From positions 9,539-73,538 of IMG/VR virus record IMGVR_UViG_3300035208_008116: a stretch of DNA of 64,000 nucleotides; one strand, 5' to 3'. A model generated the notes under the pieces. It had not been told where the DNA came from. It was given only the letters and a program-made list of their open reading frames with translations, and did no database searches. How positions within the stretch are numbered: position 1 is the stretch's first letter; every line of letters starts with the position of its first letter. The stretch is from a virus (lineage: Duplodnaviria; Heunggongvirae; Uroviricota; Caudoviricetes). The position numbers and the translations under genes are program-made. Positions 6,507-55,771 of the stretch are shown one piece after another.

Positions 6507-6508
6507 TT

Positions 6509-7043: not shown

Positions 7044-8063
7044 TTAAGTTCTTACTAATTCTAATCCTTTCATTAATTTTTCCAAGTCAACCTCTTTTTC
7101 TTTGGCATAAATTTCGAGGAGGTTCTCAATATTAAAATCAAGAGCTCCTTCAATATGGACCTTTGTCCTTTCCCGAGGATACTGCTCAACTATTAGATAA
7201 GCATCGTACTTAGATAATTCCTCCTTCAACTCATTAATCTTAATATTCTTATCAGTGATGATGACCTTAACGATATTGTGAGGATTTGCTAAGACGGCCT
7301 TTTTCACATAGTCAATTGTTGGGTTTTCAAATTTAAAAATGGCTCTCCCCGGTAATCTAATTTGTTCAACTTTTAATTTCTTCCCAATCTTCCAGATATA
7401 TTTATCCATTTCCCCAACCTCATTACAAAAAATACTCCCTGTGACAATAACATTATCGTCGTGAGTTGGGGTATGAATATGTCCTCCAACAACCAGGCCG
7501 TATTTCTCTGCTAATTTTTTTCGCGGTAAAACAGGTTCATCAAAAATATTAGTTGAAATTGTTCCAGCCTGAGTGTCCGACATGGCGTGATGGTGGAAGA
7601 GAATGTCTGCTCCCTTAAGTCCTCGCATTATTTTTGAAGTTGCTTCACTATTCTCTTTAACCCCAAGCTCAGCTTTGGTTGAATAAGGGAGGAAATCCAC
7701 CACATACTCGCCAAGTGGCCATGGAGAGAGCTTTGTTGTGCAAATATGCCAGTTAACTTTATTCAGTTCTTTCAGGAAGTCAAGCGCACTCTTTCCATTG
7801 GCAGAAGTCTCGTGATTCCCTCTCAGGAGGTAAAGATCTTTCTTTCCAAAACGTTCCAAGAAGGCAACAAATTCCCGAATGACCTCAGAGGAATTATTCC
7901 GGCCATTTAATTGGTCTCCCATAAAAACAATATGGTCACAATCTTTTAAGGATTCCACAATAAAATCGAGGGTCTCCTTCTTTTCGCTAAGCCTACGATC
8001 CTTAATATAGTCCGCATAGCCAAGAGAATCTTTAAAATGTAGGTCACCGATTACGCCGATCAT
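7044..8063 (-). CDS. sbcD: SbcD/Mre11-family nuclease
   Basis: calcineurin-like motifs GDLHF, MGDQLNG, LRGNHE, GGHIHTP. Confidence 0.75.
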   Translation of the reverse strand: MIGVIGDLHFKDSLGYADYIKDRRLSEKKETLDFIVESLKDCDHIVFMGDQLNGRNNSSEVIREFVAFLERFGKKDLYLLRGNHETSANGKSALDFLKELNKVNWHICTTKLSPWPLGEYVVDFLPYSTKAELGVKENSEATSKIMRGLKGADILFHHHAMSDTQAGTISTNIFDEPVLPRKKLAEKYGLVVGGHIHTPTHDDNVIVTGSIFCNEVGEMDKYIWKIGKKLKVEQIRLPGRAIFKFENPTIDYVKKAVLANPHNIVKVIITDKNIKINELKEELSKYDAYLIVEQYPRERTKVHIEGALDFNIENLLEIYAKEKEVDLEKLMKGLELVRT

Positions 8064-8542
8064 TTGATTTTTTGAATGGTTAATTTATATTTTGCACAAA
8101 GTTTAATTCGTTCTGGGGGTATAGGACGCGTAACGATTAAGGCTGGTTCGCTTTGATGATAAACCCAATTTCCAATAGACCCTAGATGTTTTAAGATTAG
8201 CATTTCCCCATTTACACTACAGATGTCGCTTTGAGGAAAGGAGACTTTTAATTCAACTATTTTATTTTCTCCTTTTAAAGCCATTTGTCTCATTATTGTT
8301 CCGAATTTAGATTGGGATTTTATTCGATTACTCCAGACCCATGTCCCCTGAGTTTTTCCAAACTCCCGGGTGTCTAACTCTCCTGGGCAAAATCCTTCCT
8401 TCTTAATCTTCTTCCAATTTTGATCAGTAGTGTAATGATACCCATTAAGAAGCTTCCCCGTGCCACCTTCTGGACCCCCTAAGGGGCCCAGAGTGGCCGA
8501 TCCTTTACGCCATCGCCTCCAGAGCTGCGATAATTTGTCCAT
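8060..8542 (-). CDS. hypothetical protein
   Basis: 160-aa ORF. Confidence 0.3.
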   Translation of the reverse strand: MDKLSQLWRRWRKGSATLGPLGGPEGGTGKLLNGYHYTTDQNWKKIKKEGFCPGELDTREFGKTQGTWVWSNRIKSQSKFGTIMRQMALKGENKIVELKVSFPQSDICSVNGEMLILKHLGSIGNWVYHQSEPALIVTRPIPPERIKLCAKYKLTIQKIK

Positions 8543-16032: not shown

Positions 16033-16180
16033 TTTTCCATGGTGGAGCGTAGTTGCTCTTGATTAACCCACTAGCCATTAAACTTTGGCACTTTAAGCAA
16101 TAGATACACATATGTCCCTGCTTATTTTTTTTACAATATCGGCAGAGCTCATCCTCGTTAGATGATTTCTTGGTAGTCAT
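16007..16180 (-). CDS. small zinc-ribbon protein (MTTKK...CRYC...CIYCLKC)
   Basis: in-frame Met of ORF 16007..16417, which otherwise overlaps fic out of frame. Confidence 0.25.
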   Translation of the reverse strand: MTTKKSSNEDELCRYCKKNKQGHMCIYCLKCQSLMASGLIKSNYAPPWKNENKNSKN

Positions 16181-16727
16181 CGTGCTTACTTGTTCTAAAC
16201 CACTGATAATATTCAATCTGTTCTTCCCCCTCATGAATAATATGCAGGGGGAGGCCCAAGAGCAGACGATGAATGTTGTAGAGAATTCTTCCCACTCGTC
16301 CATTCCCATCCTCAAAAGGGTGGAGAGATTCGAAGAGAATATGGAGAGTCGAAGAAAGATTTGATTTTGATAATGGGTCCATTTTTTCAATCTCAACAGC
16401 AGTCTCGATCGCATCAATGGAATCAGTCGCCCATTCTTTTAGCTGAGCCCTTAGAAGATTCCCATCAATAAAAATCTTTCGATGGCCTCCAATAAAAACA
16501 TCACAGTCTCTTAATTTTCCGGCAATTCGAGGGTTAAGATGCCCCATCAGTTTTTTGTGGATAGTTAAAATATATTCAACTTTCTTCCCCATCCGCTCAC
16601 GATTTTTGTAAGCATATTCCCAAGCCTCTTCGGCGTCAGCTAAAGCCTCGGCACCATAAACTCCCTCAATCGCATTTGATTCCATTAAAAATGAAGTAAC
16701 ATCTGATTGTTTTAATTTTTTTGACAT
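16158..16727 (-). CDS. Fic-domain protein (AMPylase family)
   Basis: canonical Fic motif HPFEDGNGRVGR. Confidence 0.7.
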   Translation of the reverse strand: MSKKLKQSDVTSFLMESNAIEGVYGAEALADAEEAWEYAYKNRERMGKKVEYILTIHKKLMGHLNPRIAGKLRDCDVFIGGHRKIFIDGNLLRAQLKEWATDSIDAIETAVEIEKMDPLSKSNLSSTLHILFESLHPFEDGNGRVGRILYNIHRLLLGLPLHIIHEGEEQIEYYQWFRTSKHDDYQEII

Positions 16728-20378: not shown

Positions 20379-21323
20379 TTAATTTTTTAATACGAATTGT
20401 GCCTTTTTAAGGGCGGTCTCCAGAGTCCAGTTGTAATGGTTGGCGATAGCATCTTCTTCGCAGGCCTTAAAAACTCTCTTGAGTTCTGGGGGGCTATAGC
20501 CAATTAGGGCCATAGCAATGGGCATTAGCCTCCTGACAAGTAGCCGATATTCATCATAGGTTCTAGGGGCCAGATCTTTAGCCAAGAAGTAGTACCCTAA
20601 GACCTTACACTTAGCCTCTTTACTTTCCAGGAGGATCCTCAACCTTTCAGGCCAATTGTAATTAGTACGGAGTTTCTCGTTAATTTTACGGGTTACCTTT
20701 TTACTGACCTTAATGGGCTCTGTTGTGGCCGGGAGCTCCGCTCCCGTCTTTAACGAAGTTAAAGATAACCTTTTGTCTTCTGTGTTCTCCTTATTCCCTT
20801 TTGTATCCTTACGGTCCATATCTTTTACCCGGCTTTTACGATAGATTTTACCCGGCTCCGTGTCCATATCTTTTACCCGGGTATCCGCGTCCATATCTTT
20901 TACTCGGGGCATTAAATGGCCTAAAATATCCCTTTTTCTTCCAGCCCCCCTCTTGCTTTTGACCGGAATAAGTTCACTTTTTTCTTTCCATTCAGACTTA
21001 TCTGCGAGCAAATAAACGTTGGGTAACTGTCGTTTTGTGACTGGGTCTTTTTCCTTTATTATTTGGATGATTCCAGCCTCTTTTAGTGTGGCAATTGCCT
21101 TAATTATTGTAGGCTTAGTTAGCCCATGCTGTTCCGCCATTTTCTCAATTGACGGGAAGCATTCCTGGGTATGAAAATCTGAGTGGCGGCTAAGAGAATT
21201 ATAAACAGCAGTAGCATTAACACCACAAATACGAGCGTAACCATTGAGATACGCGTCATCGATTTTATATTGATCTTTTCTCCGCATATCGCGGACTTTT
21301 ATCACTCTTTCCTTTTTTTCCAT
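20379..21323 (-). CDS. HTH DNA-binding replication-initiator-like protein with in-frame RVKDMD repeats
   Basis: N-terminal HTH; location beside primase-helicase; 19-bp DNA repeats inside ORF. Confidence 0.4.
   Translation of the reverse strand: MEKKERVIKVRDMRRKDQYKIDDAYLNGYARICGVNATAVYNSLSRHSDFHTQECFPSIEKMAEQHGLTKPTIIKAIATLKEAGIIQIIKEKDPVTKRQLPNVYLLADKSEWKEKSELIPVKSKRGAGRKRDILGHLMPRVKDMDADTRVKDMDTEPGKIYRKSRVKDMDRKDTKGNKENTEDKRLSLTSLKTGAELPATTEPIKVSKKVTRKINEKLRTNYNWPERLRILLESKEAKCKVLGYYFLAKDLAPRTYDEYRLLVRRLMPIAMALIGYSPPELKRVFKACEEDAIANHYNWTLETALKKAQFVLKN
20808..20909. repeat. iteron-like direct repeats GTCCATATCTTTTAC(C/T)CGG x3 plus partial copy
   Basis: copies start at 20814, 20862, 20889; partial AGATTTTACCCGG at 20843. 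Confidence 0.7.
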
Positions 21324-21364
21324 ATCATCTAATAAATTTAATTAATAATGAGGAGTAACTACAC

Positions 21365-21430
21365 AAAGGGGCTATGGAACTGCGCCGGTATTTGAAAACC
21401 GTTCCTATTTCTAGGAATTCCATAGCCCCT
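21365..21430. terminator. 13-bp perfect inverted repeat AGGGGCTATGGAA / TTCCATAGCCCCT (40-nt loop) between tandem minus genes
   Basis: seen directly; T-rich flank on minus strand. Confidence 0.35.
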
Positions 21431-35240: not shown

Positions 35241-35546
35241 ATGTTCGAGGATATTAGGCCTCATGGTAATCGGCTATTAGCTAAGATTATAACTGAGGAA
35301 ACAACGTCAAAGTCTGGGTTAATCCAGACGGCTAATTCAAATAATAAGTGGGCAACAGTGCTTGCTGTTGATGAAGAAGCAGAAACGGCAATAGAAAAAG
35401 GGGATTTAGTTTTCTTTTCTCTATTTCAGTCTGTTGAAGTTGATCCTCAGGACGTTACCTTAATCTTAGTAAAACTGGATGACGTCTTAGCTTATAAGAA
35501 GTCAGTGACTGACGACTTAAAGGAAGATGTCAGCGTTCTAGGTTAG
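35241..35546 (+). CDS. groES: GroES-like co-chaperonin
   Basis: IRPHGNRLLAKIITEETTSKSGLI...KGDLVFF...LILVKLDDVLAYK matches Cpn10 pattern; start set at ATG 35241 inside ORF 35097..35546. Confidence 0.6.
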   Translation: MFEDIRPHGNRLLAKIITEETTSKSGLIQTANSNNKWATVLAVDEEAETAIEKGDLVFFSLFQSVEVDPQDVTLILVKLDDVLAYKKSVTDDLKEDVSVLG

Positions 35547-35696: not shown

Positions 35697-36476
35697 ATGA
35701 AATATGCAGTCATCACAATGGTTCATAATGGGGGATGGTATGTTCCTATCTGGCTTAAGTACTATCGTCAATTTTTTGCAGATGAAGATATTTATATTAT
35801 CAATCATGGCAGTACTGACGGCTCAATAACTGATGAGATAAGAAAAAGACACAAAGTCTCCGATCTTCCTTTTAGTGGGGTGATTAGTTTTGATTTTTTG
35901 GTAGCTAATGTCTCAATGCTCCACGCTAAATTGGAGGGACTTTATGATTATATTGTGATTGCTGATATCGATGAGTTGATTGTGGCTGACCCTAAATACT
36001 TTAAAGATTTGAGAGAGTATCTTGACCAATCAACATTAAGCCACATTTCTGTGGGGACAAGGTCTCTTATTCAAGAACCGGAGGAGAAGGAATTAGATTT
36101 ATCTAAACCTATTCTCCCTCAAAGAAAAGTTTGGTTTTCCGAACCTGATTACGAAAAGCCTTGTATCAACAAAGTGACTCCAATTTGGACAGTAGGATTC
36201 CATTATCTTTGTACAGAGCCAGGGACAATCGTCGACGGTATGCCTTCCTACAAGATTGTTCCGAAGGTTTATGATGATAGGGTTCTGCTGATACATCTTA
36301 ATCGAATGGATGTTAACCTTTCTCGAAAGAACCACAAGAATTACCAGAAGGATAGCTTACCAGAGAAAGGGCCTCAATGGAGTAAATTCCTTCCCGAAGA
36401 CGACTTTGATTTTTGGTATTATGGGACTGTATACAAAAAAGAGGTGATTCCCAAGAGGTTTAAACATATTTTTTAA
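35697..36476 (+). CDS. glycosyltransferase-like protein
   Basis: AVITMVHNG...DIDEL (DxD-like) arrangement. Confidence 0.3.
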   Translation: MKYAVITMVHNGGWYVPIWLKYYRQFFADEDIYIINHGSTDGSITDEIRKRHKVSDLPFSGVISFDFLVANVSMLHAKLEGLYDYIVIADIDELIVADPKYFKDLREYLDQSTLSHISVGTRSLIQEPEEKELDLSKPILPQRKVWFSEPDYEKPCINKVTPIWTVGFHYLCTEPGTIVDGMPSYKIVPKVYDDRVLLIHLNRMDVNLSRKNHKNYQKDSLPEKGPQWSKFLPEDDFDFWYYGTVYKKEVIPKRFKHIF

Positions 36477-36609: not shown

Positions 36610-36867
36610 ATGAAGATTCCTTATAAAATAGAGATTTATTCGGCTCCTTTTTGTCATTATTGCCATAGTGCTAAAGATTTTTTAACAGAAAAAGGATATA
36701 AATTTACTGATTTTAACGTTTTGGACGATATTGATAAGCGAAAAGAGATGCAAGATCTGTCGGGGCAATTATCAATTCCTGTCATTGTTCTAAAAAATGG
36801 GAAAAAATCAGTTAAGGTTTTGACTGGTTTTGATAAAAAAGTCTTGGGTGAGGCGCTGGAATCCTAA
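36610..36867 (+). CDS. glutaredoxin/NrdH-like redoxin
   Basis: CHYC active site, IPVIV motif. Confidence 0.65.
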   Translation: MKIPYKIEIYSAPFCHYCHSAKDFLTEKGYKFTDFNVLDDIDKRKEMQDLSGQLSIPVIVLKNGKKSVKVLTGFDKKVLGEALES

Positions 36868-37012: not shown

Positions 37013-37044
37013 AAAAAAAGCCCCATCGTTGGAAACGACAGGGC
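37013..37044 (-). terminator. rho-independent terminator for minus-strand block (hairpin + U7)
   Basis: rc: GCCCTGTCGTT-TCC-AACGATGGGGC then TTTTTTT. Confidence 0.5.
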
Positions 37045-37053
37045 TTAATTTGG

Positions 37054-37139: not shown

Positions 37140-37595
37140 CTATTCTAAAGTTTTAGCAACTTCGACTGCGGCTGCTTTGGTTACTTCTTTGATGAGCTTA
37201 TTGGTCTCGGCTTCTAGATCTTCTCGGCTGACCAAGATTTTTCCTTCAGTTATGTCAGTAATTCGAAGATTGACCTTTTCAACCTCTTTAGTTAGATCAA
37301 TTACTTTTTCTGAAAGACCTGCGATTGCTTCGCCTAAGAGCACTTTGTACTCATTTAGGTCTTTGGACTTATCTTCAAATTCAGGATCGGCTTCATCTAG
37401 TTTGGAGAGTTTGTAGTCACAGATAGCAACATCTTTTTCTTTCTCAAGGATAAATTTCTTAGTGTTATCAATACTAACATTGAGGTCTAAAAGTTCGGTG
37501 CGAACACTATTGATCATAAGCATTCGAAGATAATCACGAGAGATATCGCGGAGGCTGTTGATAATAGCGGTGTAAGACTTAGTGTTTGGTTGCAT
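37140..37595 (-). CDS. coiled-coil protein
   Basis: heptad-rich 151 aa. Confidence 0.3.
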   Translation of the reverse strand: MQPNTKSYTAIINSLRDISRDYLRMLMINSVRTELLDLNVSIDNTKKFILEKEKDVAICDYKLSKLDEADPEFEDKSKDLNEYKVLLGEAIAGLSEKVIDLTKEVEKVNLRITDITEGKILVSREDLEAETNKLIKEVTKAAAVEVAKTLE

Positions 37596-37604
37596 TAGAT
37601 TTAT

Positions 37605-37925
37605 TTAGTTAACGATTTTTGTAATAATAACCAACAAATGGGCCTTGATGGCTTCTTTGCTTAGGGACGAATTCTTGGCACTGGCTTCTTTCTTTCTTAA
37701 GATGGTATTGACTATTCTACCGACTTGATTGGTTGTCAAGTTTTCGTTTATCAATTCTTTTTCTGGACTATCGAGATTGACCATATGCATGGTCCAATTA
37801 TTTTTTTCTAATTGTTCACAAGCCAGACTATATTTCGTATGGGGAATATTTACTATTACTAAATTGTCTGGTTGGTCTCGATAGATAATTTCACAATTTG
37901 TTGGCAATCGGATGGGAATGCTCAT
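37605..37925 (-). CDS. hypothetical protein
   Basis: 106-aa ORF. Confidence 0.3.
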   Translation of the reverse strand: MSIPIRLPTNCEIIYRDQPDNLVIVNIPHTKYSLACEQLEKNNWTMHMVNLDSPEKELINENLTTNQVGRIVNTILRKKEASAKNSSLSKEAIKAHLLVIITKIVN

Positions 37926-38122
37926 TGATGCTTAAGTTCTTGGCTAATAATTTCGACCAATTTATCTTCCATTTGGTAATAGATGTTACCATTGAGGCCC
38001 TTAGATGGCCTGAATATTGGCTCTATGGCTTCTTCTATTAATCTGATGGCTAGTTTTCGATACGGGTGTTCGGCATCGTTAAGAGATATCTTGGCCTTCA
38101 TCTTGTTTGAGCATATGTCCAT
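37922..38122 (-). CDS. hypothetical protein
   Basis: 66-aa ORF. Confidence 0.25.
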   Translation of the reverse strand: MDICSNKMKAKISLNDAEHPYRKLAIRLIEEAIEPIFRPSKGLNGNIYYQMEDKLVEIISQELKHQ

Positions 38123-38504
38123 CCCATTTTAGCTTTTCAAAGCTTTTGGGGAAGCAGGTTTTGAAGAGCCAAATAGACCAACGGCAAGCTTCTAGCTCGC
38201 TGGAGCCGAAGAAATGATGACCAAGTTCATGGAGGGTAGAGAGAATTGATGGATGGTCTCCATCTAATTCTATAATTGAGAGTTTGTCTTCACTCTCATT
38301 ATCGATGTAGCAATACCTATCACTTACTTGGGGCTGTATTCCGGTGGCTAGGGTGTGGATAAGGAGTAAAAGCCTGGTAATTTTGATGGGGTCTTTTTTC
38401 CATCCTTTATAATGAGCTTTTTTCCATTCTTTAACCCTGGCGATTAGTTCTGGAGGAAAATTAGGGCTTGGCAATTTCATTATTTCTTCTTTGGTTGGGT
38501 ACAT
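38079..38504 (-). CDS. HExxH zinc metallopeptidase-like protein
   Basis: LSTLHELGHHFFG motif. Confidence 0.4.
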   Translation of the reverse strand: MYPTKEEIMKLPSPNFPPELIARVKEWKKAHYKGWKKDPIKITRLLLLIHTLATGIQPQVSDRYCYIDNESEDKLSIIELDGDHPSILSTLHELGHHFFGSSELEACRWSIWLFKTCFPKSFEKLKWDGHMLKQDEGQDIS

Positions 38505-38545
38505 TTGCTATTTTATTAAGGCTACTAATAATCGACCTTTTATTT

Positions 38546-39835
38546 TTACCATTCATCCCCATATCTTCCATATCCATAGGGCTCATGGTTGTCAGGATGC
38601 CCATAAGGGGCTTGATATGGGTCTTGTTCTGAAGAAGCTAGCTTTTCGGCAAATTCATTATCTAGTTCTTCATTTTCTGTTGGCTTTTTATCTTTTTCTA
38701 TTTCATTAACTTCTTTTGCATATTCGTATTCATTTTGGAAGAAGCAGGCTTTTTTCATCAATTCTTCAATTTGGTGGGTGATAGCAGGAATGTCTTCTGT
38801 GTCTGTAGGGTATACATCAAGATAATTAAAGAAGTCATCAACAATTCCTTCCATTTCTTCTTTGAGTTCTCCTAATTTTGTTAGGAATTCATCATCGATG
38901 GTTGGCTCGTCTTCTGGGGGAATATCAATTTTTTCGGGGTCTTTTTCTTCAGTCTTTATCAATGTTCCTTGACCTTGGAATCCAATTGGCGTTTTTTCGG
39001 TGGTAACGTATGTTCTTTTGACTGGGTCCCAAACATGGAGTGTATTTGAGGTTGATTCGTTTCCTGAAAAATATGAAGTTGCTAGAGTTTGCCTTTCTTG
39101 GAGTAGTCCTAATGGGACATTTGTTAACTTCATTTCTCCCTTAGGTTCGAAGGAATATAATCTTTTTTCTTTGATATTATCTCCTTCTCCCTCTGATGAT
39201 AGTTTAATGAAGCCTCTGCTTTTTGCCATATGGAGTGGGCTAGAATTCCTTGCAAAATATACTCGATGGATTTTTTGAGTTGTCTTATTTATCTGGAGAG
39301 CAATGAAAGCGGCTGATCCTTGGACTTTTCCTTCTTTGTCTCTGTTTCCTTCAAGATAGAGAGCTAATTCAATGGCTAATGTTTCAGAGTCATTGTATTT
39401 TTCAAAGATTGTCTTTGGATTATAAGTGCTTTCAATACTGTATTTTGTTCGGTAATTGAGTCCCATCTTCTCATGACGTTCTTTTAATTCATCATCATTA
39501 CTGATTATTCCGTTATGGATGACTAAATAATCGAACTTTAATGATTTATCACTAACAAAAAGTGGGTGGGTTTGATCTAGGTAATTATCAGTGGAAGTAG
39601 GCATTCTATGGTGAGCGATCATCATTTGAACTGGTTTCATTTCGATATCCATCAAGAATTTTGCGGGTTCGCAAGCTCTTTTAACTTCATAGGTTAGGCT
39701 TGGATTGATGCGAACGACACCAAATCCTTTGCTGCCTCTTTCGTGTTGTTCTTCGTATCGATTGATGATCCAATCATTGACAGGTTTTTTGTTCTTACCT
39801 TTTTTGGTATCGAACATGGCTATTAATCCACACAT
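38546..39835 (-). CDS. class-II (Ntn) glutamine amidotransferase domain protein with acidic C-terminal tail
   Basis: N-terminal MCG (Cys2 nucleophile), HNGIISN motif. Confidence 0.55.
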   Translation of the reverse strand: MCGLIAMFDTKKGKNKKPVNDWIINRYEEQHERGSKGFGVVRINPSLTYEVKRACEPAKFLMDIEMKPVQMMIAHHRMPTSTDNYLDQTHPLFVSDKSLKFDYLVIHNGIISNDDELKERHEKMGLNYRTKYSIESTYNPKTIFEKYNDSETLAIELALYLEGNRDKEGKVQGSAAFIALQINKTTQKIHRVYFARNSSPLHMAKSRGFIKLSSEGEGDNIKEKRLYSFEPKGEMKLTNVPLGLLQERQTLATSYFSGNESTSNTLHVWDPVKRTYVTTEKTPIGFQGQGTLIKTEEKDPEKIDIPPEDEPTIDDEFLTKLGELKEEMEGIVDDFFNYLDVYPTDTEDIPAITHQIEELMKKACFFQNEYEYAKEVNEIEKDKKPTENEELDNEFAEKLASSEQDPYQAPYGHPDNHEPYGYGRYGDEW

Positions 39836-41532
39836 TAGAATTGTACGTTATTGTCTGATAATTGGTTTTCGCTATGGATTATTCGCAATGTCTCCTCAGC
39901 ATCACTATAGTCTGCTTCATACATTGCTTCTCCTGGGCCAAAAGGATTTTCTCCGAGGATTCTTTCCCCTGATTCTATTCTGGCTTGATCCATTTCTTGA
40001 GCGACTTGCCTTGTTGCTTCAGCAGCTCTTCGGGCAGGATTGGAATCTTTATCGATGTGAAGATTTAATTCTTTTTGGTGAAGAACTTCTGTAATTTCTC
40101 CTGGAGTTCTTTTTCCGTCAATTTCGATATATTCAGGAAGATTTTTATGACTAATTTCAACTGGCTTTAAACCTTTTTCAATACTGTGGACTAGTTTTAA
40201 GAATGGTTTAAAGTTTAATTCTTGTCGATCTTCGTAAGGAATTCCAATCATAACAATAGGGATTTGCGTATCTTTGGCTAATTCTCCCGTGCGTAGATTA
40301 ATCATATTGTTATAATTTTTGAAGGCGGAACGATAGCGAGATTGCATCTTAATCAGAATTTCTTTCATGCTTTCAAGATCGTCTTGAGTTTTTAGTCTTT
40401 CTTGGCCAGCAAGGAAGTGAAGATTAGCATCAACAGCCATTAAGCTCTTTATTCCTTTTCGTAATCCAAAGAAGAAATATTGGTGATTAAGTTTCCAATT
40501 AAAGGCAACGATTCGTTTCGATAATTCTTTGGCGAATGTTTCGACATTGCTATCTCCATTGATAGTAAAGTTCACAAATCCGGAGAGTTCTTCAATATCT
40601 AGTTTCTTATTGATTGGAACAATTTTCTTGGCGAGAACTTTTTGAGCATTTGGTAAATTGGATGGCTTTTGGAGTTTCCAGCCTTGCATGATGTTGTAAC
40701 TAACAGCTTTTTTATCTGCGAGGACTCTTTCTGGATTCAAGATATAATTAATTTCATTCTTGTACATAGGATAGAACTCGAATTTCTTAATATATTTCTT
40801 GATTTGTTCAATGATTCCTTTTGACAAGGCTGGATAATCAGCGAGTAGAAGTTCTTGAAGAGCTGATCCTTGTTTTTCTGTCTTAAATATCAGATCATTA
40901 TATTTTGCGAATGCACGAGGATGATTAATGATCTCATTGTAGACAGTGCCTAAAAAGGCCATTGTTGCCATTGCAATTTTTGGGGTTGTTAGCCATTCGG
41001 CGCTGGGGGTACGAAATTCGTAAACAGCTATTCCGTTTTTACTATCTGCTCTGGAATCATTGAGTTTTCCATAGCCTGATTTTAATCGGACGTTTAGATT
41101 CATTTTGTTGTCTCCACTCATAAGTGGAAGATAAAATGAGGCTAATCGTTTATGGATCAGATTAACTTTTCCGTTGTTAGTGGAATTGCTTGGAAGTGAG
41201 AAGTGAATATGGCCTCCGACTGATCCGTGAAGACTTAATGTTGATAGATCGAAGAGGGAAAGTTGTTTGCTGACAGCTTTGAAGATTTTTCCTATATTAT
41301 CGACTAGTTCGGCAGGATTTTTGGCATATTTAGGACGGATTTCTCCCGTTTCATTGCAGCCATCCCAACCAAATTCTCCTCCTGGGGTTTCGAATCCCAT
41401 GCTTCTTGATGGCAATCCTTCGAGGAGGCTAGAAAAAACTTCTTCGGCACTAACACGATTATCTTGTAGTAAGAGATTGAATTCAGGATCAGCTCCGATT
41501 GTGAATCCAAAGTCTGGGGTTTTTTTTGGCAT
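39835..41532 (-). CDS. glutamine-synthetase/GCS2-fold carboxylate-amine ligase (amidoligase-like)
   Basis: TIGADPEF, ETGEIRP, GGHIHFS motifs in order; start overlaps amidotransferase stop. Confidence 0.4.
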   Translation of the reverse strand: MPKKTPDFGFTIGADPEFNLLLQDNRVSAEEVFSSLLEGLPSRSMGFETPGGEFGWDGCNETGEIRPKYAKNPAELVDNIGKIFKAVSKQLSLFDLSTLSLHGSVGGHIHFSLPSNSTNNGKVNLIHKRLASFYLPLMSGDNKMNLNVRLKSGYGKLNDSRADSKNGIAVYEFRTPSAEWLTTPKIAMATMAFLGTVYNEIINHPRAFAKYNDLIFKTEKQGSALQELLLADYPALSKGIIEQIKKYIKKFEFYPMYKNEINYILNPERVLADKKAVSYNIMQGWKLQKPSNLPNAQKVLAKKIVPINKKLDIEELSGFVNFTINGDSNVETFAKELSKRIVAFNWKLNHQYFFFGLRKGIKSLMAVDANLHFLAGQERLKTQDDLESMKEILIKMQSRYRSAFKNYNNMINLRTGELAKDTQIPIVMIGIPYEDRQELNFKPFLKLVHSIEKGLKPVEISHKNLPEYIEIDGKRTPGEITEVLHQKELNLHIDKDSNPARRAAEATRQVAQEMDQARIESGERILGENPFGPGEAMYEADYSDAEETLRIIHSENQLSDNNVQF

Positions 41533-41981
41533 TAGTTATTATTAAGTCTAAGTTTGCTTATTAATTGATTAGCTTCTTCTTCTGTGTTGTTTGGAGCCAT
41601 ATATCTAATTATGTCAATAATTTGCCTGTTAGATAAAGGCTTTTTTCGACAAAGGATAGCAAAAAGGAGAGAGGATAATTCTCGGTTATGCCAATTATTG
41701 AATCCTTGGCTATTATCTCCCATTCCTGAGACTCTAGCATTGAGATAAAGTAATGCTTCGTGAAGGGCTTGATATGAAGGTCCATCTGGTTTTTTTATAC
41801 TCCAGACAACTGAATTCTTTTTTATGAATTTGATGAATGCGAGTTGCCCTGATGAATTAAGTTGGTCGTAAGTGATGGTTTCATGTTTTTCCCAATACCT
41901 ATCCCTCCATTGGCTGTAATCGTTTCTTATTTTAGGAACAAGGGCTTTGACTCCTTTTAAGTTAATTGTGGGGTACGGCAT
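41532..41981 (-). CDS. hypothetical protein
   Basis: 149-aa ORF. Confidence 0.3.
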   Translation of the reverse strand: MPYPTINLKGVKALVPKIRNDYSQWRDRYWEKHETITYDQLNSSGQLAFIKFIKKNSVVWSIKKPDGPSYQALHEALLYLNARVSGMGDNSQGFNNWHNRELSSLLFAILCRKKPLSNRQIIDIIRYMAPNNTEEEANQLISKLRLNNN

Positions 41982-44801: not shown

Positions 44802-44832
44802 AGATGACAAAAAGCCCACCGATTAGGTGGGC
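44802..44832 (-). terminator. rho-independent terminator GCCCACC-gatta-GGTGGGC + U-run
   Basis: seen directly; T-runs on both sides. Confidence 0.5.
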
Positions 44833-44839
44833 TTAAGTC

Positions 44840-46395: not shown

Positions 46396-46422
46396 AACAA
46401 AAGCCCGCCTACAAAGGCGGGC
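46396..46422 (-). terminator. rho-independent terminator GCCCGCC-tttgta-GGCGGGC + UUUUGUU
   Basis: directly downstream of 46443..46802. Confidence 0.55.
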
Positions 46423-46442
46423 TAATCATTAGTTCTAAAGGA

Positions 46443-47786: not shown

Positions 47787-48401
47787 ATGAATATGGAGAA
47801 AGAAGATTTAATTAGGGTGTTAGTTGAGGAGGGGAGGGAGGTTCTTGAGAAAATTGATAACCTCCAGCGGTGTGTCGATATTATTAAAGTGGCCCTTAAT
47901 GATGAGGGAGATGAAGCTATCTCTATCCTCTCTGACCATCTGGATATGAGGAAGGGGGAATATTATGACATCTCTCAAAAGGAGAATCTTCTCAAAGAAG
48001 AGATTCTTAGGGAGGAGGAAGAAGTTAAGAGGAAGATTGAGGAAGAAAAAAGGAGAGAAGAGACTATGGTTAAGCCCTTAGAGGTACCCTCTTATTATGA
48101 GGTTTATGAGAAAGGGAGTACATATAAGGCGTTTATTGATAGATCTCTTTCTTATTGTGCTGGGCAGAAATGTAAAAAAAGGATATATTGGGTCAAAAAT
48201 CCAGAGGGGAAAGCTAAGCCAGTAAGGTTTATTACATGGAAAGAACTAGAAACCCTTGTCCTAATTCCCCCTATAAAGGAAGCCTATATCAGTGAGAGGA
48301 AGGCTTTGGGTGCTCCATGGATCTGTCTTGAGCATCATCATGATTGTGTCGATCGTTATAAAAATTTTTCCGCTGAAAAGGCTTTAAGATTAAAATCATG
48401 A
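47787..48401 (+). CDS. hypothetical coiled-coil/Cys-rich protein (start at first ATG, not GTG 47769)
   Basis: ORF-track start lies in -10 box. Confidence 0.4.
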   Translation: MNMEKEDLIRVLVEEGREVLEKIDNLQRCVDIIKVALNDEGDEAISILSDHLDMRKGEYYDISQKENLLKEEILREEEEVKRKIEEEKRREETMVKPLEVPSYYEVYEKGSTYKAFIDRSLSYCAGQKCKKRIYWVKNPEGKAKPVRFITWKELETLVLIPPIKEAYISERKALGAPWICLEHHHDCVDRYKNFSAEKALRLKS

Positions 48402-49012
48402 ACACCAAACCAAACACTTACTCGCGATTTAATCCTTTGACTCACTCCTACGAGATGATTCATAGGGAGGAACTCCTTAAGCGGAACCTTAAGATTATTA
48501 AACTTAGGGGGGAAGGCTTGACTTATGAGGAGATTGGCAAGCGATTTGGTATAAGCCGAGAGAGGGTGAGGCAAGTAGGGAAGCTTCTTAAACCAGAGTT
48601 TTTTACCAACCAGAGGCAAAAATCCCCGAGGAAGATTGTAAAATGCCATTGGTGTGGCAAACCGGTAGATATTAGGCTCTGGGATTGGCAAAGAGACAGG
48701 GTGACCGGCAAGAAAAGGCATTATTATTGCAATCAGAAGTGCTCATGGGCAGATAAAAGGATCTATCAGAGTAAGGAGGAGCAGCAGGCGGAGATGATGA
48801 GGCGTTATAAGATTCGCTATCGCCAAGACCCTAAAGTAAGGCAAGCCCGGGCGGAAGCTTCAGTTAAATGGATAAAGAAGCTTAAATTAGATCCTGTTAA
48901 GTGGGAAGCTTATAGGGAGAAGCAAAGGCTCTGTTCTAGAAAATGGCATCGTATTAATAAATTAAGAAAGAAAAAAAATGAGCAAAATCATATTACGAGG
49001 GGACGCCGCTAG
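48398..49012 (+). CDS. sigma-70 region-4-like HTH protein with basic zinc-ribbon tail
   Basis: LTYEEIGKRFGISRERVRQV matches sigma r4.2 HTH; CHWCGK...CNQKC. Confidence 0.45.
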   Translation: MNTKPNTYSRFNPLTHSYEMIHREELLKRNLKIIKLRGEGLTYEEIGKRFGISRERVRQVGKLLKPEFFTNQRQKSPRKIVKCHWCGKPVDIRLWDWQRDRVTGKKRHYYCNQKCSWADKRIYQSKEEQQAEMMRRYKIRYRQDPKVRQARAEASVKWIKKLKLDPVKWEAYREKQRLCSRKWHRINKLRKKKNEQNHITRGRR

Positions 49013-50582
49013 ATTCGCCCTGAAGAAGGGTATTGATGAAGTGGCGGACTCAGTGAAGATCACTTTGGGTCCAAGGGGGAGGAATGTCGTTCTCCAACGT
49101 TATAATGTGCCCTTGATTACGAATGATGGGGTTTCGATTGCTAGAGAGATTGAGGTTAAAGACCCTATCGAGCAATTGGGGGTGGATATTGTAAAGGAGG
49201 TAGCCAATAAAGCGAATGATGTGGCCGGAGATGGCACCACGACAGCGATTATACTCACTCAGGCTATCTCAGAGATTGGTTTAGGGCGAACGGCCTTCTT
49301 TTGCGATAAGATGGCCGTCAGGAGGGGCTTAGAGGCTTCTAGCGAGCTTGTAGTATCGAGGCTGAAGGAAATGGCCCGCCCAGTTAAGACTTTAGAGGAA
49401 GCGGTTCAGGTTGCTTCCATTAGCGCGGAGAGTGAGGAGTTAGGCAAGGTTATTGGAGAAGTGGTGATGGAAGTAGGCAAAGATGGGGCCGTTACCGTGG
49501 ATGAATCTCCTGCTTCTGGCATTTTTTCAGAGATAGTGACAGGGATGAAGATTGATAAAGGCTATCTCTCCCACTATATGGTAACCGATAATGAGAAAAT
49601 GGTGGTTGAATATCCTAACGTTGCGGTCTTGGTTACCGACAAGAGGTTGAGTTCAGTTAAAGACATCTTCCCCTTCTTGGATAAAGTTATTAGCGGGGGC
49701 CAAAAAGAACTTCTAATTATTGCTGAGGATGTTGAAGGGGAGGCCTTGGCGGGGATGATTGTTAACAAGGTTAGGGGGATTATGAATGTTGTCGCCATCA
49801 AAGCGCCGGGTTTTGGAGAACGAAAGAAGGAGATTATGGAGGATATTGCTATTGCGGTGGGGGGCAAAGTTGTTAGTAAGTCTGTCGGGTTGGATCTCGC
49901 CACGGTTGAGCCCAATGAAGTCTTAGGACAAATTAGTCGATTAGTCGTGACAAAAGATCAGACGGTTATGATTCGGGGGAGCCTTAGTGACGATGGGGCC
50001 GTCCAAGAAAGGATTGCCTCCATTAAGAAGGACATGGAGTCGGTTGAATCCAAGCATGATAAGGAACAAATGAAATCTCGGATTGCCATGCTCAATGGGG
50101 TTGTCGCCGTGATTAGGGTAGGGGCAAACACTGAAGCCGAGGCCAAATATCTAAAACTGAAGGTTGAGGATGCTGTTAATGCTACTCAAGCAGCAATCGA
50201 CGAGGGTATTGTTACTGGGGGAGGGAGTGCTTTAGTTAAGGTCTGGGAATGGTTAAGGGTTAATCGTCCGGGAGATTTAAACTCGGTTGAGTTTCAGTCA
50301 GGGGTAGATATCCTCTTGGAGTCTCTACTTGTTCCCTTTAAACAAATTGTGGAGAATGCTGGAAGGGATGACTTTGCGGTTTTGCTCTTAGATCTTCGTA
50401 AAGGTGACCAAGGTTATGATGCCAAGAACGATATTGTCGTTGAAGATATGTTTAAAGCGGGGATTATTGACCCAGTAAAGGTAACTCGAACAGCCTTAGA
50501 ACGCGCAGTCAGTGCGGCTGCCATATTATTAACCACGGAAGTCGCCGTGGCAGAAGTTAAAAAAGATGATGGCCATGTCTAA
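48978..50582 (+). CDS. groEL: GroEL-like chaperonin (Cpn60)
   Basis: LGPRGRNVVL, VAGDGTTTA, equatorial/apical domain pattern over 534 aa. Confidence 0.85.
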   Translation: MSKIILRGDAARFALKKGIDEVADSVKITLGPRGRNVVLQRYNVPLITNDGVSIAREIEVKDPIEQLGVDIVKEVANKANDVAGDGTTTAIILTQAISEIGLGRTAFFCDKMAVRRGLEASSELVVSRLKEMARPVKTLEEAVQVASISAESEELGKVIGEVVMEVGKDGAVTVDESPASGIFSEIVTGMKIDKGYLSHYMVTDNEKMVVEYPNVAVLVTDKRLSSVKDIFPFLDKVISGGQKELLIIAEDVEGEALAGMIVNKVRGIMNVVAIKAPGFGERKKEIMEDIAIAVGGKVVSKSVGLDLATVEPNEVLGQISRLVVTKDQTVMIRGSLSDDGAVQERIASIKKDMESVESKHDKEQMKSRIAMLNGVVAVIRVGANTEAEAKYLKLKVEDAVNATQAAIDEGIVTGGGSALVKVWEWLRVNRPGDLNSVEFQSGVDILLESLLVPFKQIVENAGRDDFAVLLLDLRKGDQGYDAKNDIVVEDMFKAGIIDPVKVTRTALERAVSAAAILLTTEVAVAEVKKDDGHV

Positions 50583-52487: not shown

Positions 52488-52570
52488 GCGTTGTTGGTGG
52501 AGTGGTCATCACGGACGACTGTAAATCGTCTGCCATTGCGGCAAGGGGAGTTCGATTCTCTCACAACGCA
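52488..52570 (+). tRNA. tRNA-Tyr (anticodon GTA), long variable arm
   Basis: manual fold: perfect 7-bp acceptor GCGTTGT/ACAACGC, D-arm, anticodon loop CUGUAAA, 15-nt variable arm, T-arm GGGAG-TTCGATT-CTCTC. Confidence 0.6.
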
Positions 52571-52751
52571 CACTCTCTTTGGAGATACTAGTGTCCTCGC
52601 CAGTCACTAGGCCGGAAGGTGGGTATATCCCAATGGCGTAATTATGACAAATAAATTAGAAAGAAAAATTCAGTTTGGTAAATATACCAAGAGGGATTAT
52701 AGAGAAGTGAGGAGATTATTAAAAAATAAGTGGAAGGAAGAGGAGTTAGAG

Positions 52752-53413: not shown

Positions 53414-54820
53414 ATGAAATTTAATACGAAAGAGTCCACTCGGACTACTAACTTAGCAGGAGGTGTTGCTTTTTCAATTTCTCCAGAAATTGAGTTGCTG
53501 CACGCGGTCTTAACGACCTTCCTCGATGATAAGTATTACGAGTCAAAAGAGGATCGGATTGCTCGAATCAAGAAGTTAATCTCCTTGAATAAACCAGAGT
53601 TCGTCGCCAAATTAGCCTGTGTGGCTCGTCTTGAGTTTAATCTTCGGTCAGTGACTCACCTTCTTTTGGGTGAACTGGCTAAGACTCATAAGGGAGATAG
53701 CCTAGTGAAGGATGCGATTGTTAAGTGTACTGTTCGTCCTGATGACCTGACTGAACTCGCGGCTTATGTTGGGACGCCTTTACCTAAGCAACTTAAGAGA
53801 GGGGTGCGTAATGGTCTCCTAAAATTTAATCGTTATCAATTAGCCAAGTATAAGGGTGAAGGTAATAAGATCTCTCTCGTTGACTTATTTAATCTTTGTC
53901 ACCCTAAAGTTAAGCACGCCTCTGAAGAGCAAAAGCAAGCTTGGGCAGATCTTATTAAGGGCGACTTAAAATCCTTTGACACATGGGAAACTGAAATCTC
54001 AAATTCAACTGCTGAAGACAAGAGCGAGAAGTGGGCACAACTTGTTCAAACGGGCAAGATGGGTTACATGGCTTTGTTAAGGAATCTCAACAACCTTATT
54101 AAAAATAATGTTGATGAGGAGACTATCGGTTGTGCGATTAAGAAGTTGACTGATCCTGAGGAAGTTAAGAAGTCAAAGCAAATGCCCTTCCGTTTTGTGA
54201 CTGCTTACGATAATGTAAAAGGGAATCGTAAATTGACTGATGCTATTTCTGTGGCGATGGATATGGCGGTCTCTAATACTCCTAAGCTACCGGGGAAGAC
54301 TCTCGTCGCGGTAGACGTCTCTGGCTCGATGAGGGGAGATCCCATTAGGAAGGCGGCTATCTTTGGGGCCACCTTAACTCAAGCTAATCCTGATACTGAT
54401 TTGATTCTCTATGACACCCGAGTGAAGGAAGAGGTTGTTGGCAGCCGTCTCCCTGTTATTGATTTGGCTAAGAAGATTGAAAATGATGCTATGGGTGGAG
54501 GGACTGAAACTTCTTTAGTCTTTAAGTATGCGATTGAAAAGAAGAAAGTCTATGATCGGATTATTATTATTTCCGATAACGAGAGCTGGGCAGAAGGTTG
54601 GGGTTATGGAACTAAGTCTATTCAAGGATGGTATGGTCAATATAAAAAGATTTCTGATCCATTTGTCTACGCGATCGATATTCAGGGATATGGAACTAAG
54701 GATATTGCAGGAGGGAAAGTTTTTCACCTCTGTGGTTGGTCTGATCGCCTCCTTGATTATATCGGTAAGATGGAGGAGGGTGATGCCTTGGTCGATTATA
54801 TTAAAAATTATAAAATTTAA
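53414..54820 (+). CDS. Ro60/Rsr-like protein (TROVE domain + vWA domain)
   Basis: N-terminal TROVE-like segment (GG...LxxFLxDxYYE...LFxxxLA pattern), C-terminal vWA MIDAS VAVDVSGSM. Confidence 0.6.
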   Translation: MKFNTKESTRTTNLAGGVAFSISPEIELLHAVLTTFLDDKYYESKEDRIARIKKLISLNKPEFVAKLACVARLEFNLRSVTHLLLGELAKTHKGDSLVKDAIVKCTVRPDDLTELAAYVGTPLPKQLKRGVRNGLLKFNRYQLAKYKGEGNKISLVDLFNLCHPKVKHASEEQKQAWADLIKGDLKSFDTWETEISNSTAEDKSEKWAQLVQTGKMGYMALLRNLNNLIKNNVDEETIGCAIKKLTDPEEVKKSKQMPFRFVTAYDNVKGNRKLTDAISVAMDMAVSNTPKLPGKTLVAVDVSGSMRGDPIRKAAIFGATLTQANPDTDLILYDTRVKEEVVGSRLPVIDLAKKIENDAMGGGTETSLVFKYAIEKKKVYDRIIIISDNESWAEGWGYGTKSIQGWYGQYKKISDPFVYAIDIQGYGTKDIAGGKVFHLCGWSDRLLDYIGKMEEGDALVDYIKNYKI

Positions 54821-55442: not shown

Positions 55443-55572
55443 AAAACGTCTCGTGTCGTGGTCCAACACGGGGGGGTGGAAGACTCGAGAAGCAACTCGT
55501 AAAAACATAGGCTTGTCACTGGGGTCGATCCAACCCTATCGCCAAAAAGCAACCTTGGTAGGTGACGGCCAT

Positions 55573-55640
55573 GCCCCTCCCCCGACGGGGGGATAACTTA
55601 TCGGCAGATAAGGGAAGTTGTTCAAACCAACAGGGGGGCT
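55573..55640 (+). ncRNA. tRNA-like cloverleaf element (non-canonical D and anticodon loops) within GC-rich hairpin cluster 55450-55645
   Basis: 7-bp acceptor-like stem GCCCCTC/GGGGGGC, hairpins CCCC-gac-GGGG, CTTATC-ggca-GATAAG, GTTG-TTCAAAC-CAAC (T-loop-like). Confidence 0.3.
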
Positions 55641-55771
55641 CATGTTAGGACAGATTTTTTCATTCATTGGTTGGGGGATCCTTTGTTTCTGTTGGGTAGT
55701 TTTTTATATCCTTTATCTTCCCTTTGCTTTGATAATTATTCTTGGGATATTAATATTTAATAAAAATTAAC

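Follow-up and report, generated by a model that had tools for sequence, protein, structure and literature searches.

What does a glutamine amidotransferase (GATase) encoded beside a glutamine synthetase (GS)-fold ligase do for a phage? The question is raised by a locus of an uncultured ~100-kb phage (genome ~102 kb), of which a 64-kb stretch, here called the window, was analyzed. A sequence-only reading had proposed three ORFs there, encoding a carboxylate-amine ligase, a class II GATase (GAT-II; 38546-39835), and an HExxH metallopeptidase. Direct translation confirmed all three on the minus strand at the places given, with every quoted motif (Table 1). The ligase stop and the GATase start share one base (TAATG, not ATGA), and the junction of a 149-aa ORF with the ligase gene is identical. 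Database searches returned 276 homologs of the ligase, 76 of the GATase, and 308 of the HExxH protein. The three ORFs are real genes rather than chance ORFs: homologs at 35-50% identity keep invariant catalytic-type residues.

The gene order, all on the minus strand, is ligase, GATase, HExxH protein, a 106-aa protein, and a 151-aa coiled-coil protein. In some relatives, the HExxH protein is fused to the coiled-coil protein, and the module is therefore taken as five genes extending from 37140 to 41532. It forms the last part of a run of small early-type genes, and a terminator closes that run. The 149-aa ORF, probably outside the module core, has a single weak homolog (29%, in L006), and family searches with it gave no match. 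Not noted in the sequence-only reading were the second domain of the ligase, the conserved 106-aa and 151-aa genes farther downstream, and the fusions of the HExxH and coiled-coil proteins.

Table 1. Features of the module and its borders (window coordinates)
Feature	Coordinates	Strand	Remarks
149-aa ORF upstream of the ligase	41532..41981	-	TAATG coupling to the ligase (one-base overlap); not conserved in relatives
565-aa ATP-dependent carboxylate-amine ligase	39835..41532	-	PF14395 family; GS/GCS2/PafA fold
Ligase catalytic N-domain, residues 1-265	40738..41532	-	Invariant D15, E17, W56-D57-G58, E64, R66, G106-G107-H108, H110, E172, R174, PSAEW 176-180
Second conserved ligase domain, residues ~270-460	40153..40725	-	α/β; clade-specific; without family assignment
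Ligase C-terminal tail, residues 461-565	39838..40152	-	Acidic, disordered, variable
Class II (Ntn) glutamine amidotransferase domain, residues 1-245, nucleophile Cys2	39101..39835	-	
GATase C-terminal half, residues 246-429 and stop codon	38546..39100	-	Acidic, poorly conserved
141-aa HExxH protein, putative metal-dependent hydrolase	38079..38504	-	HELGH at residues 92-96 (nt 38217-38231)
106-aa conserved small protein	37605..37925	-	Same-position homologs in L004, L005, L007, L010, L012, L023, L024
151-aa coiled-coil protein	37140..37595	-	Same position in L004, L006, L010, L012, L023, L024
Terminator-like hairpin, operon end	37018..37046	-	13-pair stem, 6 G-C pairs, then T-run; the 151-aa gene ends 94 nt before it

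The 565-aa protein had been placed among the carboxylate-amine ligases on the order of its motifs, and profile searches bear this out. Pfam PF14395 matched residues 12-265 (profile positions 1-233 of 254) with a score of 44 bits, where the cutoff is 25 (E = 2.1e-11), and was present in 120 of 120 ligase homologs among the matches listed; the protein has the GS/GCS2-type carboxylate-amine ligase fold. Translation gives ADPEF at residue 14, ETGEIRP at 61, GGHIHFS at 106, and YEFRTPSAEW at 171. Thirty sequences share eight residues without exception (D15, E17, E64, R66, H108, H110, E172, and R174), all on predicted β-strands. The pattern conserved for the metal, ATP, and acyl-phosphate site is an acidic pair on strand 1 with Glu/Arg, His, and Glu/Arg on later strands; the ligand role of each residue is putative. 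The tail carries a net charge of -11, with pLDDT below 50 at residues 488-495, 523-547, and 553-565, and tails are net negative in 29 of 30 homologs. Some members of the clade (only L004 and L008) encode a separate ligase resembling gp86 of phage phiEco32, so the 565-aa ligase is a paralogous lineage.

The assignment of the GATase to the class II Ntn glutaminases also held. Against the PDB, its family profile matched PurF from residue 1 (E = 1.6e-7), GFAT/GlmS at ~1e-6 (GFAT, 1.2e-6), and the AsnB glutaminase domain, again from residue 1. The NCBIfam GlmS N-domain (positions 1-194) matched residues 1-215 with E = 6.6e-11. Pfam scores were below cutoff for GATase_6 (22.5 versus 27 bits) and GATase_7 (18.5 versus 25 bits), and Pfam GATase_4, the stand-alone amidohydrolase type, did not match. 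By direct translation, the protein starts with MCG (nt 39827-39835) and carries HHRMPTS at residue 75, HNGIISN at 107, and NDSE at 148. Among 29 homologs, at least 90% keep C2; R33, G34, H75, H76, R77, P79, T80, S81, N84, H90, P91, H107, N108, G109, N148, D149, and E151 are invariant in the alignment. HMMER aligned H107-N108-G109, with the oxyanion-hole Asn-Gly, and H76-R77, with the Arg for the carboxylate of glutamine, to HNG and (T/V)R in GFAT and PurF. For the Asp that would bind the α-amino group of glutamine, the candidate is N148-D149-S150-E151, similar to D-[ST]-E in the same two enzymes, in columns that an insertion kept HMMER from aligning cleanly. The public gene call P0121 (423 aa) begins at Met7 and so loses the catalytic Cys; in the family alignment, MCG proves to be the true start. 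The enzyme is a stand-alone glutaminase domain without a fused synthase domain, and a partner is therefore expected. Its C-terminal half has 45 D/E versus 17 K/R (net -28), and the tails are acidic in all 29 homologs (mean, -17). The earlier suggestion that this tail is itself the ligated substrate found no support: acidity is conserved, but neither the sequence nor the terminal residue is conserved in the homolog alignment.

For the third ORF, the proposed HExxH metallopeptidase, the motif was confirmed but the peptidase assignment was not. H92, E93, and H96 of HELGH are invariant in 36 sequences (~40% identity), and the motif lies inside a predicted helix (residues 87-99). E103, C107, and H130, all invariant, are candidate third metal ligands. 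The protein matched no known family or fold, with no recognizable peptidase or zincin fold, and the label "HExxH metallopeptidase" describes the motif alone. In P0327 and P0388, the HExxH domain is fused to a coiled coil of the 151-aa type (hhalign probability, 99.4%, E = 5.9e-21; BLASTP, E = 3e-9). These gene fusions link the coiled-coil protein functionally to the HExxH protein. The 106-aa family showed no invariant residues when homologs were compared.

Co-conservation of ligase and GATase, on which the sequence-only reading had staked its proposal, is strict, with the GATase directly following the ligase in 12 of 12 close loci. The HExxH protein follows the pair in all 10 loci whose contig extends far enough. 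Adjacency and order are retained at ~40% protein identity, while flanking genes turn over. Ligase and GATase are also adjacent in distant loci (L013, L014, L015, and L019); the HExxH and coiled-coil proteins were not detected in distant archetype-type loci. The sequence-only reading was correct that such pairs have already been described in phages, among them phiEco32, UFV-P2, OM43 phages, and Pseudomonas phages; the wider set comprises LUZ24-/phiEco32-like phages, OM43 phages, a Poseidoniales virus, and mycobacteriophage Marvin. When a Pseudomonas phage underwent directed evolution in an independent study (PMC11450229), both evolved lines gained missense mutations in its amidoligase gene and in the GAT-II gene beside it.

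We tentatively read the core of this five-gene early-region module as a glutamine-dependent, ATP-driven, two-subunit amide-forming enzyme, a reading that falls somewhat short of probable. The stand-alone class II glutaminase would split glutamine by means of Cys2 and, in complex with its partner, provide ammonia to the GS/GCS2-fold ligase, which would turn a carboxylate into an acyl-phosphate and then into an amide. By precedent across the fold superfamily, the carboxylate that is amidated or ligated would most likely be glutamate-type, on a peptide or metabolite. The likeliest targets would be host glutamate-containing peptides (cell-wall stem peptides or protein) rather than DNA; the cell-wall idea, to its disadvantage, comes only from later papers that cite Iyer et al. 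2009. The ligase has gained its extra α/β domain in this phage clade, and the HExxH metal-site protein, as a putative hydrolase, would with its coiled-coil partner probably process, recognize, or reverse the modification.

Several observations support a two-subunit enzyme: the PF14395 score above cutoff, the invariant residues of both proteins, the match of the GATase profile to true amidotransferases, the one-base overlap, and the co-conserved loci. The HExxH-coiled-coil fusions, the early-region position, and the missense mutations in the evolved Pseudomonas phage lines speak for the same reading. Glutamate-centered partner enzymes also occur in related contexts, namely γ-glutamylamine cyclotransferase-like genes (GGACT) in clade members L008 and L025 (PF06094 in L025), and a RimK-like ATP-grasp and a GGCT in phiEco32. 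The sub-cutoff Pfam GATase scores and the lack of a recognizable peptidase fold in the HExxH protein argue against it. No glutamine-dependent amidotransferase is known to have a synthase subunit of the GS fold, so that ammonia channeling in this pair would be without precedent. With free Glu and NH3 as the substrates of the ligase, the pair would run a futile cycle, which also counts against the two-subunit reading. In a fuller version that we regard as improbable, the module would be a hitherto unrecognized kind of phage machinery for post-translational or peptide modification. The glutaminase-fed GS-fold ligase would amidate or glutamylate carboxylates of host or phage proteins or cell-wall peptides. 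The mark would be processed or erased by the strictly linked HExxH protein, acting as a new-fold metallohydrolase tethered by the coiled coil.

An unlikely alternative is a γ-glutamyl carrier or protecting-group cycle, in which the ligase would link the γ-carboxylate of free glutamate to an amine (polyamine, amino acid, or lysine side chain) and the GAT-II-like Ntn enzyme would later hydrolyze the resulting γ-glutamyl amide or use it as a donor. EgtA/EgtC, PuuA/PuuD, and GmaS/N-methylglutamate synthase are precedents. The characterized enzymes of the fold that the ligase matches structurally (GCLs, GS, GmaS, PafA, and NpaA1-type GS) use the glutamate γ-carboxylate. The conserved R77 and D149 of the GATase suit a substrate whose α-carboxylate and α-amino groups are free, as they are in γ-Glu-X, and the GGACT-like genes of clade members and the GGCT of phiEco32 point the same way. 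However, the GATase profile resembles those of PurF-, GlmS-, and AsnB-type true amidotransferases rather than GATase_4, and opposing activities in a translationally coupled pair would be futile unless another enzyme acted between them, and no obvious one is encoded in the module. Nor did phmmer and Pfam scans detect any AIG2/GGCT/GGACT γ-glutamyl cyclotransferase in the 64-kb window. The conserved acidic, disordered tails on both enzymes, and the strict linkage of a metal-site protein to the pair, would suit Pup-like tagging, with the ligase attaching a glutamate-ended peptide, or the acidic tail of either enzyme, to lysines of host or phage proteins and the HExxH protein serving as processing enzyme or isopeptidase. 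We consider this distinctly unlikely. The fold does not discriminate, YbdK and GCLs scoring equally well; the 106-aa and 151-aa families have no conserved C-terminus, whether Gln, Glu, or GG-Q/E; and the ligase and GATase tails lack a conserved terminus in the homolog alignments. In addition, the GATase retains the putative binding residue for a free α-amino group, a group missing from a C-terminal Gln of a protein.

DNA or nucleotide hypermodification, which the sequence-only reading had offered as its alternative, would have the pair act on a modified base for restriction evasion, e.g., amidate or glutamylate a 5-substituted pyrimidine. According to Lee et al. (2021; PMC8989533), 5-HMUDK and aGPT-Pplase2 genes of some viral contigs are accompanied by Pfam amidoligase and glutamine amidotransferase domains without assigned function, but partner genes of this kind were not found here. 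Pfam scans of ~50 ORFs of the window (64 kb of the ~102-kb genome), including plausible ones of at least 150 aa, gave no dUMP/dCMP hydroxymethylase, 5-HMUDK, aGPT-Pplase, or TET/JBP, and in L001, L023, L024, and L025 no thymidine-hypermodification genes lie in the 10 kb on either side of the module. The module, moreover, sits among small early genes, not nucleotide-metabolism genes, and such a role is very improbable. Finally, the two genes could be independent auxiliary metabolic genes (e.g., a glutamate-boosting glutaminase and an unrelated ligase), adjacent only by descent. Physical or functional coupling of the pair is putative, but independence is hardly credible given adjacency and order that persist despite flank turnover, the same pair in very distant phages, the one-base overlap, and the fusions of accessory parts.

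The kind of pair was predicted in 2009; the extra conserved ligase domain, the HExxH protein without family match, and the HExxH-coiled-coil fusions are new. Pairs are now annotated in many phages, among them therapeutic Pseudomonas phages, marine OM43 phages, and archaeal viruses. The version in this clade is pared down to one ligase, one glutaminase, a metal-site protein, and a coiled-coil partner, and a large family of uncultured ~100-kb phages retains it strictly; compared with the five-enzyme phiEco32 cluster, it thus offers a simpler entry point for biochemistry. A GS-fold glutamine-dependent amidotransferase, if that is what the pair forms, would be the first of its kind and a new architecture in a textbook enzyme class, and would give a role to two linked genes common to many phages. 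The HExxH protein may define a new hydrolase fold. If it acts on the envelope or on a protein of the host, the module would represent a new mechanism of host takeover or superinfection exclusion.

Among known systems, the phiEco32/LUZ24-type cluster (PF14395 is named "Phage phiEco32-like COOH.NH2 ligase-type 2") likewise has a GS-fold ligase adjoining a GAT-II in the early/middle region of a lytic phage. The phage amidoligase/GAT-II system was predicted in 2009 (Iyer, Abhiman, Burroughs & Aravind, Mol Biosyst). phiEco32 encodes the ligases gp86 (268 aa) and gp84 (Amidoligase_2), the 676-aa GAT-II gp83, the RimK-like ATP-grasp gp80, and the GGCT gp77, and UFV-P2 has the same gene set. The window instead encodes a single ligase, of 565 aa and with its additional domain, and a 429-aa GAT-II, and adds the HExxH and coiled-coil proteins. 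Relationships by hhalign are remote (ligase versus gp86, E = 1.6e-4; GATase versus gp83, E = 0.09). Neither family HMMs nor phmmer searches with gp84 and gp86 detected a second amidoligase (Amidoligase_2, PF12224, or gp86-like) in the window. Searches for a RimK-like ATP-grasp were negative by phmmer with gp80 in the window and close loci and by Pfam in the scanned window ORFs; gp80-like proteins were found by phmmer in nine distant loci.

YbdK/GCS2 ligases and GshA share 8-13% identity with the window ligase and have no glutaminase partner, second domain, or acidic tail. PafA/Dop differ in that neither a Pup-like tag gene nor a proteasome context was found in the module, and deamidation here would fall to an unrelated Ntn hydrolase apparently built for free glutamine. 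In EgtA-EgtC and other pairs of this type, a GCS2/GS-fold ligase is encoded together with a GATase-like enzyme of the class II Ntn type that acts on γ-glutamyl amides; intervening enzymes operate in those pathways, and the window GATase is closer to true amidotransferases than to EgtC/YafJ-type hydrolases. MurT-GatD (peptidoglycan iso-Glu amidation) and AsnB-type enzymes resemble the proposed two-subunit enzyme in that a glutaminase subunit feeds ammonia to an ATP-dependent carboxylate-activating partner. Their synthase partners have Mur-ligase or PP-loop folds, not the GS fold, and GatD is a class I GATase. The glutaminase domains nearest to the window GATase are those of AsnB, PurF, and GlmS.

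The ligase, GATase, and HExxH genes lie within a run of mostly small ORFs on the minus strand (46247-37140), at the coordinates given in the sequence-only reading, and direct translation bore out all of the motifs quoted there. The ligase carries ADPEF at residue 14, ETGEIRP at residue 61, and GGHIHFS at residue 106; the GATase has the N-terminal MCG and HNGIISN at residue 107; and HELGH occupies residues 92-96 of the 141-aa protein. A one-base overlap, TAATG, was found at two junctions, between the upstream 149-aa ORF and the ligase gene and between the ligase and GATase genes, and 41 nt separate the GATase gene from the HExxH gene. Strong G+C-rich hairpins with T-runs at 44812-44834 and 46402-46423 split the minus-strand block, and the former is terminator-like on either strand. 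The transcription unit holding the module probably starts just below 44812. A promoter scan was uninformative, with fewer sigma-70-like sites than in shuffles. Genes encoding a family-2 glycosyltransferase (35697-36476) and a glutaredoxin (36610-36867) converge on the module's terminator.

Coordinates of the module genes and of the hairpin at their 3' end
Feature	Coordinates	Strand	Size	Remarks
Ligase	39835-41532	minus	565 aa	
GATase	38546-39835	minus	429 aa	
HELGH protein	38079-38504	minus	141 aa	
Terminator-like hairpin	37046-37018		13-pair stem	Just 3' of the 151-aa gene; closes the unit

Residues 12-265 of the ligase were assigned to Pfam family PF14395, "phage phiEco32-like COOH.NH2 ligase type 2" (44 bits against a cutoff of 25). 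There were 276 homologs in a large protein database; all 120 of those listed carry PF14395, with 38-47% identity, and many are on 85-102 kb contigs. In a 30-sequence alignment, D15, E17, W56-D57-G58, E64, R66, G106-G107-H108, H110, E172, R174, and P176-W180 are invariant. Fold matches (values in parentheses) were obtained to the YbdK-like carboxylate-amine ligase 1tt4 (17.6), Dop (17.5), PafA (17.2), γ-glutamylcysteine ligases (14-16), and glutamine synthetases and γ-glutamylmethylamide synthetase (10-12). Because of these matches the fold assignment is secure, and the amidoligase fold proposed for this protein from its motifs stands. We considered whether its C-domain is a fused phiEco32 gp85 and rejected this (hhalign E=0.52). 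The ligase ends in a variable, disordered, acidic tail (net -11 here; negative in 29/30 homologs), which is missing from the sequence-only reading.

Pfam scores for the GATase were below the curated cutoffs (GATase_6, 22.5 bits; GATase_7, 18.5). Despite this, family evidence from sequence profiles is strong and upholds the proposed class II assignment: a profile built from 29 sequences matches PurF (E=1.6e-7, starting at residue 1) and GFAT/GlmS (E~1e-6), and in NCBIfam, where the GATase alone had matches, residues 1-215 align to GlmS positions 1-194 (E=6.6e-11), with weaker matches to PurF and AsnB. C2 is nearly invariant, and R33, G34, H75-H76-R77, P79-T80-S81, H107-N108-G109, and N148-D149-S150-E151 are invariant. 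In alignments with PurF and GFAT, the Arg falls on their glutamine-carboxylate Arg and the Asn-Gly on their oxyanion hole; D149 corresponds to the α-amino-binding Asp at motif level only. The domain ends near residue 245. The remainder is poorly conserved and has no conserved terminus, and it is the long acidic tail described earlier (net -28; negative in 29/29 homologs). We interpret the GATase as a self-standing glutaminase of the true-amidotransferase type that lacks a fused synthase domain, and we infer that it needs a partner. One public call of this gene (P0121; ENA, 423 aa) starts at Met7 and loses the catalytic Cys2; since the family alignment shows an MCG start, MCG is the real start, and automated annotation can thus miss the Ntn nucleophile. 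In the ligase and GATase tails (39838-40152 and 38549-39100; alignments A1 and A3), the last residue is often aromatic: this holds for 10/30 and 9/29 sequences, respectively, where the background is ~9% (binomial p=3e-4 and p=8e-4, ignoring phylogeny). In this they recall the docking tails of SSB and T7 gp2.5, which are likewise acidic and aromatic-tipped.

The HExxH family has 308 members by word-indexed search and 732 representatives by exhaustive search. Across 36 sequences (~40% identity), H92, E93, H96, E103, C107, H130, and W27 are invariant. The motif noted earlier therefore stands, and relatedness to a known peptidase does not: the protein had no match in Pfam, PHROGs, or NCBIfam, eight family members searched against Pfam gave nothing significant, the family profile gave spurious myoglobin matches alone in the PDB (E>0.05), and in a full-library profile search the top 150 matches were all close family members. 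That the Glu is invariant favors a catalytic role over a metal site with a structural function alone, and "metallopeptidase" is a putative label taken from the motif. In two database proteins, P0327 and P0388, the HExxH domain is fused to the family of the 151-aa coiled-coil protein (hhalign probability 99.4%, E=5.9e-21; BLASTP E=3e-9). Because of these fusions, the two proteins are functionally tied and the module extends to 37140. Another family member, P0229, comes from a 3.3 kb contig and is labeled at NCBI as a MAG protein of a "Candidatus Paceibacterota bacterium"; this either points to a host or reflects phage DNA that ended up in a MAG bin.

Loci of relatives (20 from IMG/VR via the ligase alignment and five by exact protein look-up) were all scored with family HMMs. 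The ligase and GATase genes, whose pairing had been proposed, are co-conserved: the GATase gene directly follows the ligase gene in 12/12 distinct close-clade loci, and the HExxH gene follows the GATase gene in 10/10 close-clade loci that extend far enough. Downstream, homologs of the 106-aa and 151-aa genes are usually present. Upstream genes turn over freely in the close clade; in locus L023 the block of small genes upstream of the module encodes, among others, SET-domain and HAD_SAK_2 proteins (7982-8440 and 6350-6814). In distant phages (L013-L022), the ligase-to-GAT-II adjacency recurs, together with RimK-like ATP-grasp genes and extra ligase paralogs, and the family HMMs found no HExxH protein there. 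Two clade members, L008 (7100-8836) and L004 (2058-3251), carry an extra, separate gp86-like ligase (E~1e-17 to 1e-18), and the 565-aa ligase is therefore a paralogous lineage apart from the gp86-like ligases. A GGACT-like gene adjoins the gp86-like ligase of L008 in the module's operon, and L025 has a PF06094 GGACT gene (21027-21374) about 9 kb away; through these genes, the clade retains its link to glutamate chemistry.

The data show a pair of enzymes that both retain their catalytic-type residues and whose genes are strictly linked and overlap by one base, together with fusion-linked accessory proteins. Our preferred, tentative reading is that the glutaminase would pass ammonia to the ligase, which would activate a carboxylate with ATP and then amidate it. 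We prefer it because the GATase looks like PurF, GlmS, and AsnB and not like stand-alone amidohydrolases, has no synthase domain of its own, and is translationally coupled to an enzyme of an ammonia-using fold; the ligase's fold classically uses ammonia. Because joining free glutamate to NH3 would be futile, the carboxylate would be something else and, by analogy with other enzymes of this fold, a glutamate-type carboxylate on a peptide. A γ-glutamyl carrier cycle, favored by the GGACT and GGCT partners, is unlikely: the type of glutaminase tells against it, as does the lack of an enzyme that would act in between.

Pup-like tagging draws support from the acidic tails and from the matches to PafA and Dop; we nonetheless consider it improbable, as no tag with a conserved terminus was found. 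The downstream small proteins were tried as a Pup-like tag and rejected, a conserved C-terminus being absent in both. DNA hypermodification, an alternative raised in the sequence-only reading, would accord with the report of Lee et al. 2021 that such domains occur near 5-HMUDK and aGPT-Pplase genes; these genes were not found among the window ORFs scanned or in the neighborhoods examined, and we regard this alternative as very doubtful. That unrelated genes adjoin by chance is scarcely credible and was rejected on the evidence of synteny, overlap, and fusion. Overall, the observation behind the original proposal of a ligation cluster is confirmed, and its interpretation has support in part. 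A glutamine-dependent GS-fold amidotransferase, or a protein or cell-wall target, would, if shown, considerably raise the interest of the module.

A ~102 kb metagenomic phage contig matches the window and bears an identical gene block. The phage encodes GroEL/GroES, a sigma-70 region-4 protein, SbcCD, RecA, a primase-helicase, an SNF2 helicase, a large terminase, and four tRNAs. No near relative among cultured phages emerged when the region (megablast) and the ligase and GATase (tblastn) were compared with 50,697 phage records, and terminase identity to any cultured phage among these records is 26-29% at best. GroEL is full-length (534 aa; PHROG 5725, E=9e-136; 48398-50582 region), with Cpn10/GroES at ~35241-35546, and the GroEL start overlaps the gene for the 204-aa sigma-70 region-4 protein; phiEco32, too, has a sigma factor of its own. 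A Ro60/TROVE and vWA protein gene (53414-54820) is flanked by tRNA-Tyr and by a tRNA-Arg(CCG) that, at 93 nt, is unusually long (tRNAs at 52488-52571 and 55549-55641), and a Y-RNA-like partner RNA could lie nearby. Further auxiliary genes encode a Fic/DOC-domain protein (16158-16727) and a peptide deformylase (2274-2813). PADLOC defense models gave no matches. The portal of one clade member (L025:1-552) matches PF23899 (SU10_portal). Since SU10 is a phiEco32-like phage, the match hints that the structural modules of this ~100 kb clade and of the phiEco32 group are distantly linked.

The archetype of such modules is the phiEco32/LUZ24-type cluster, which in phiEco32 comprises gp86 (COOH.NH2 ligase, 268 aa), gp84 (amidoligase), gp83 (GAT-II, 676 aa), gp80 (RimK-like ATP-grasp), and gp77 (γ-glutamyl cyclotransferase), and UFV-P2 has the same set. 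The match of the window ligase to gp86 (hhalign E=1.6e-4) is confined to the GGHxH…E[FY]R segment, the GATase matches gp83 at hhalign E=0.09, and counterparts of gp77, gp80, and gp84 were not found in the window. The module is thus a remote, reduced relative of this cluster. For such clusters Iyer et al. 2009, as quoted in later papers, proposed cell-wall modification and superinfection exclusion, or secondary-metabolite synthesis; none of these later papers describes an experiment. A Pseudomonas phage put through directed evolution offers one experimental hint: both evolved lines had missense changes in the amidoligase gene and the neighboring GAT-II gene (PMC11450229). The enzyme pair is of a known, still-uncharacterized kind. 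What is new in this clade is that the ligase has an extra domain, that the ATP-grasp, the second ligase, and the GGCT have been lost, and that the module includes the HExxH protein, whose fold is unassigned and whose coiled-coil partner is either fused to it or encoded next to it.
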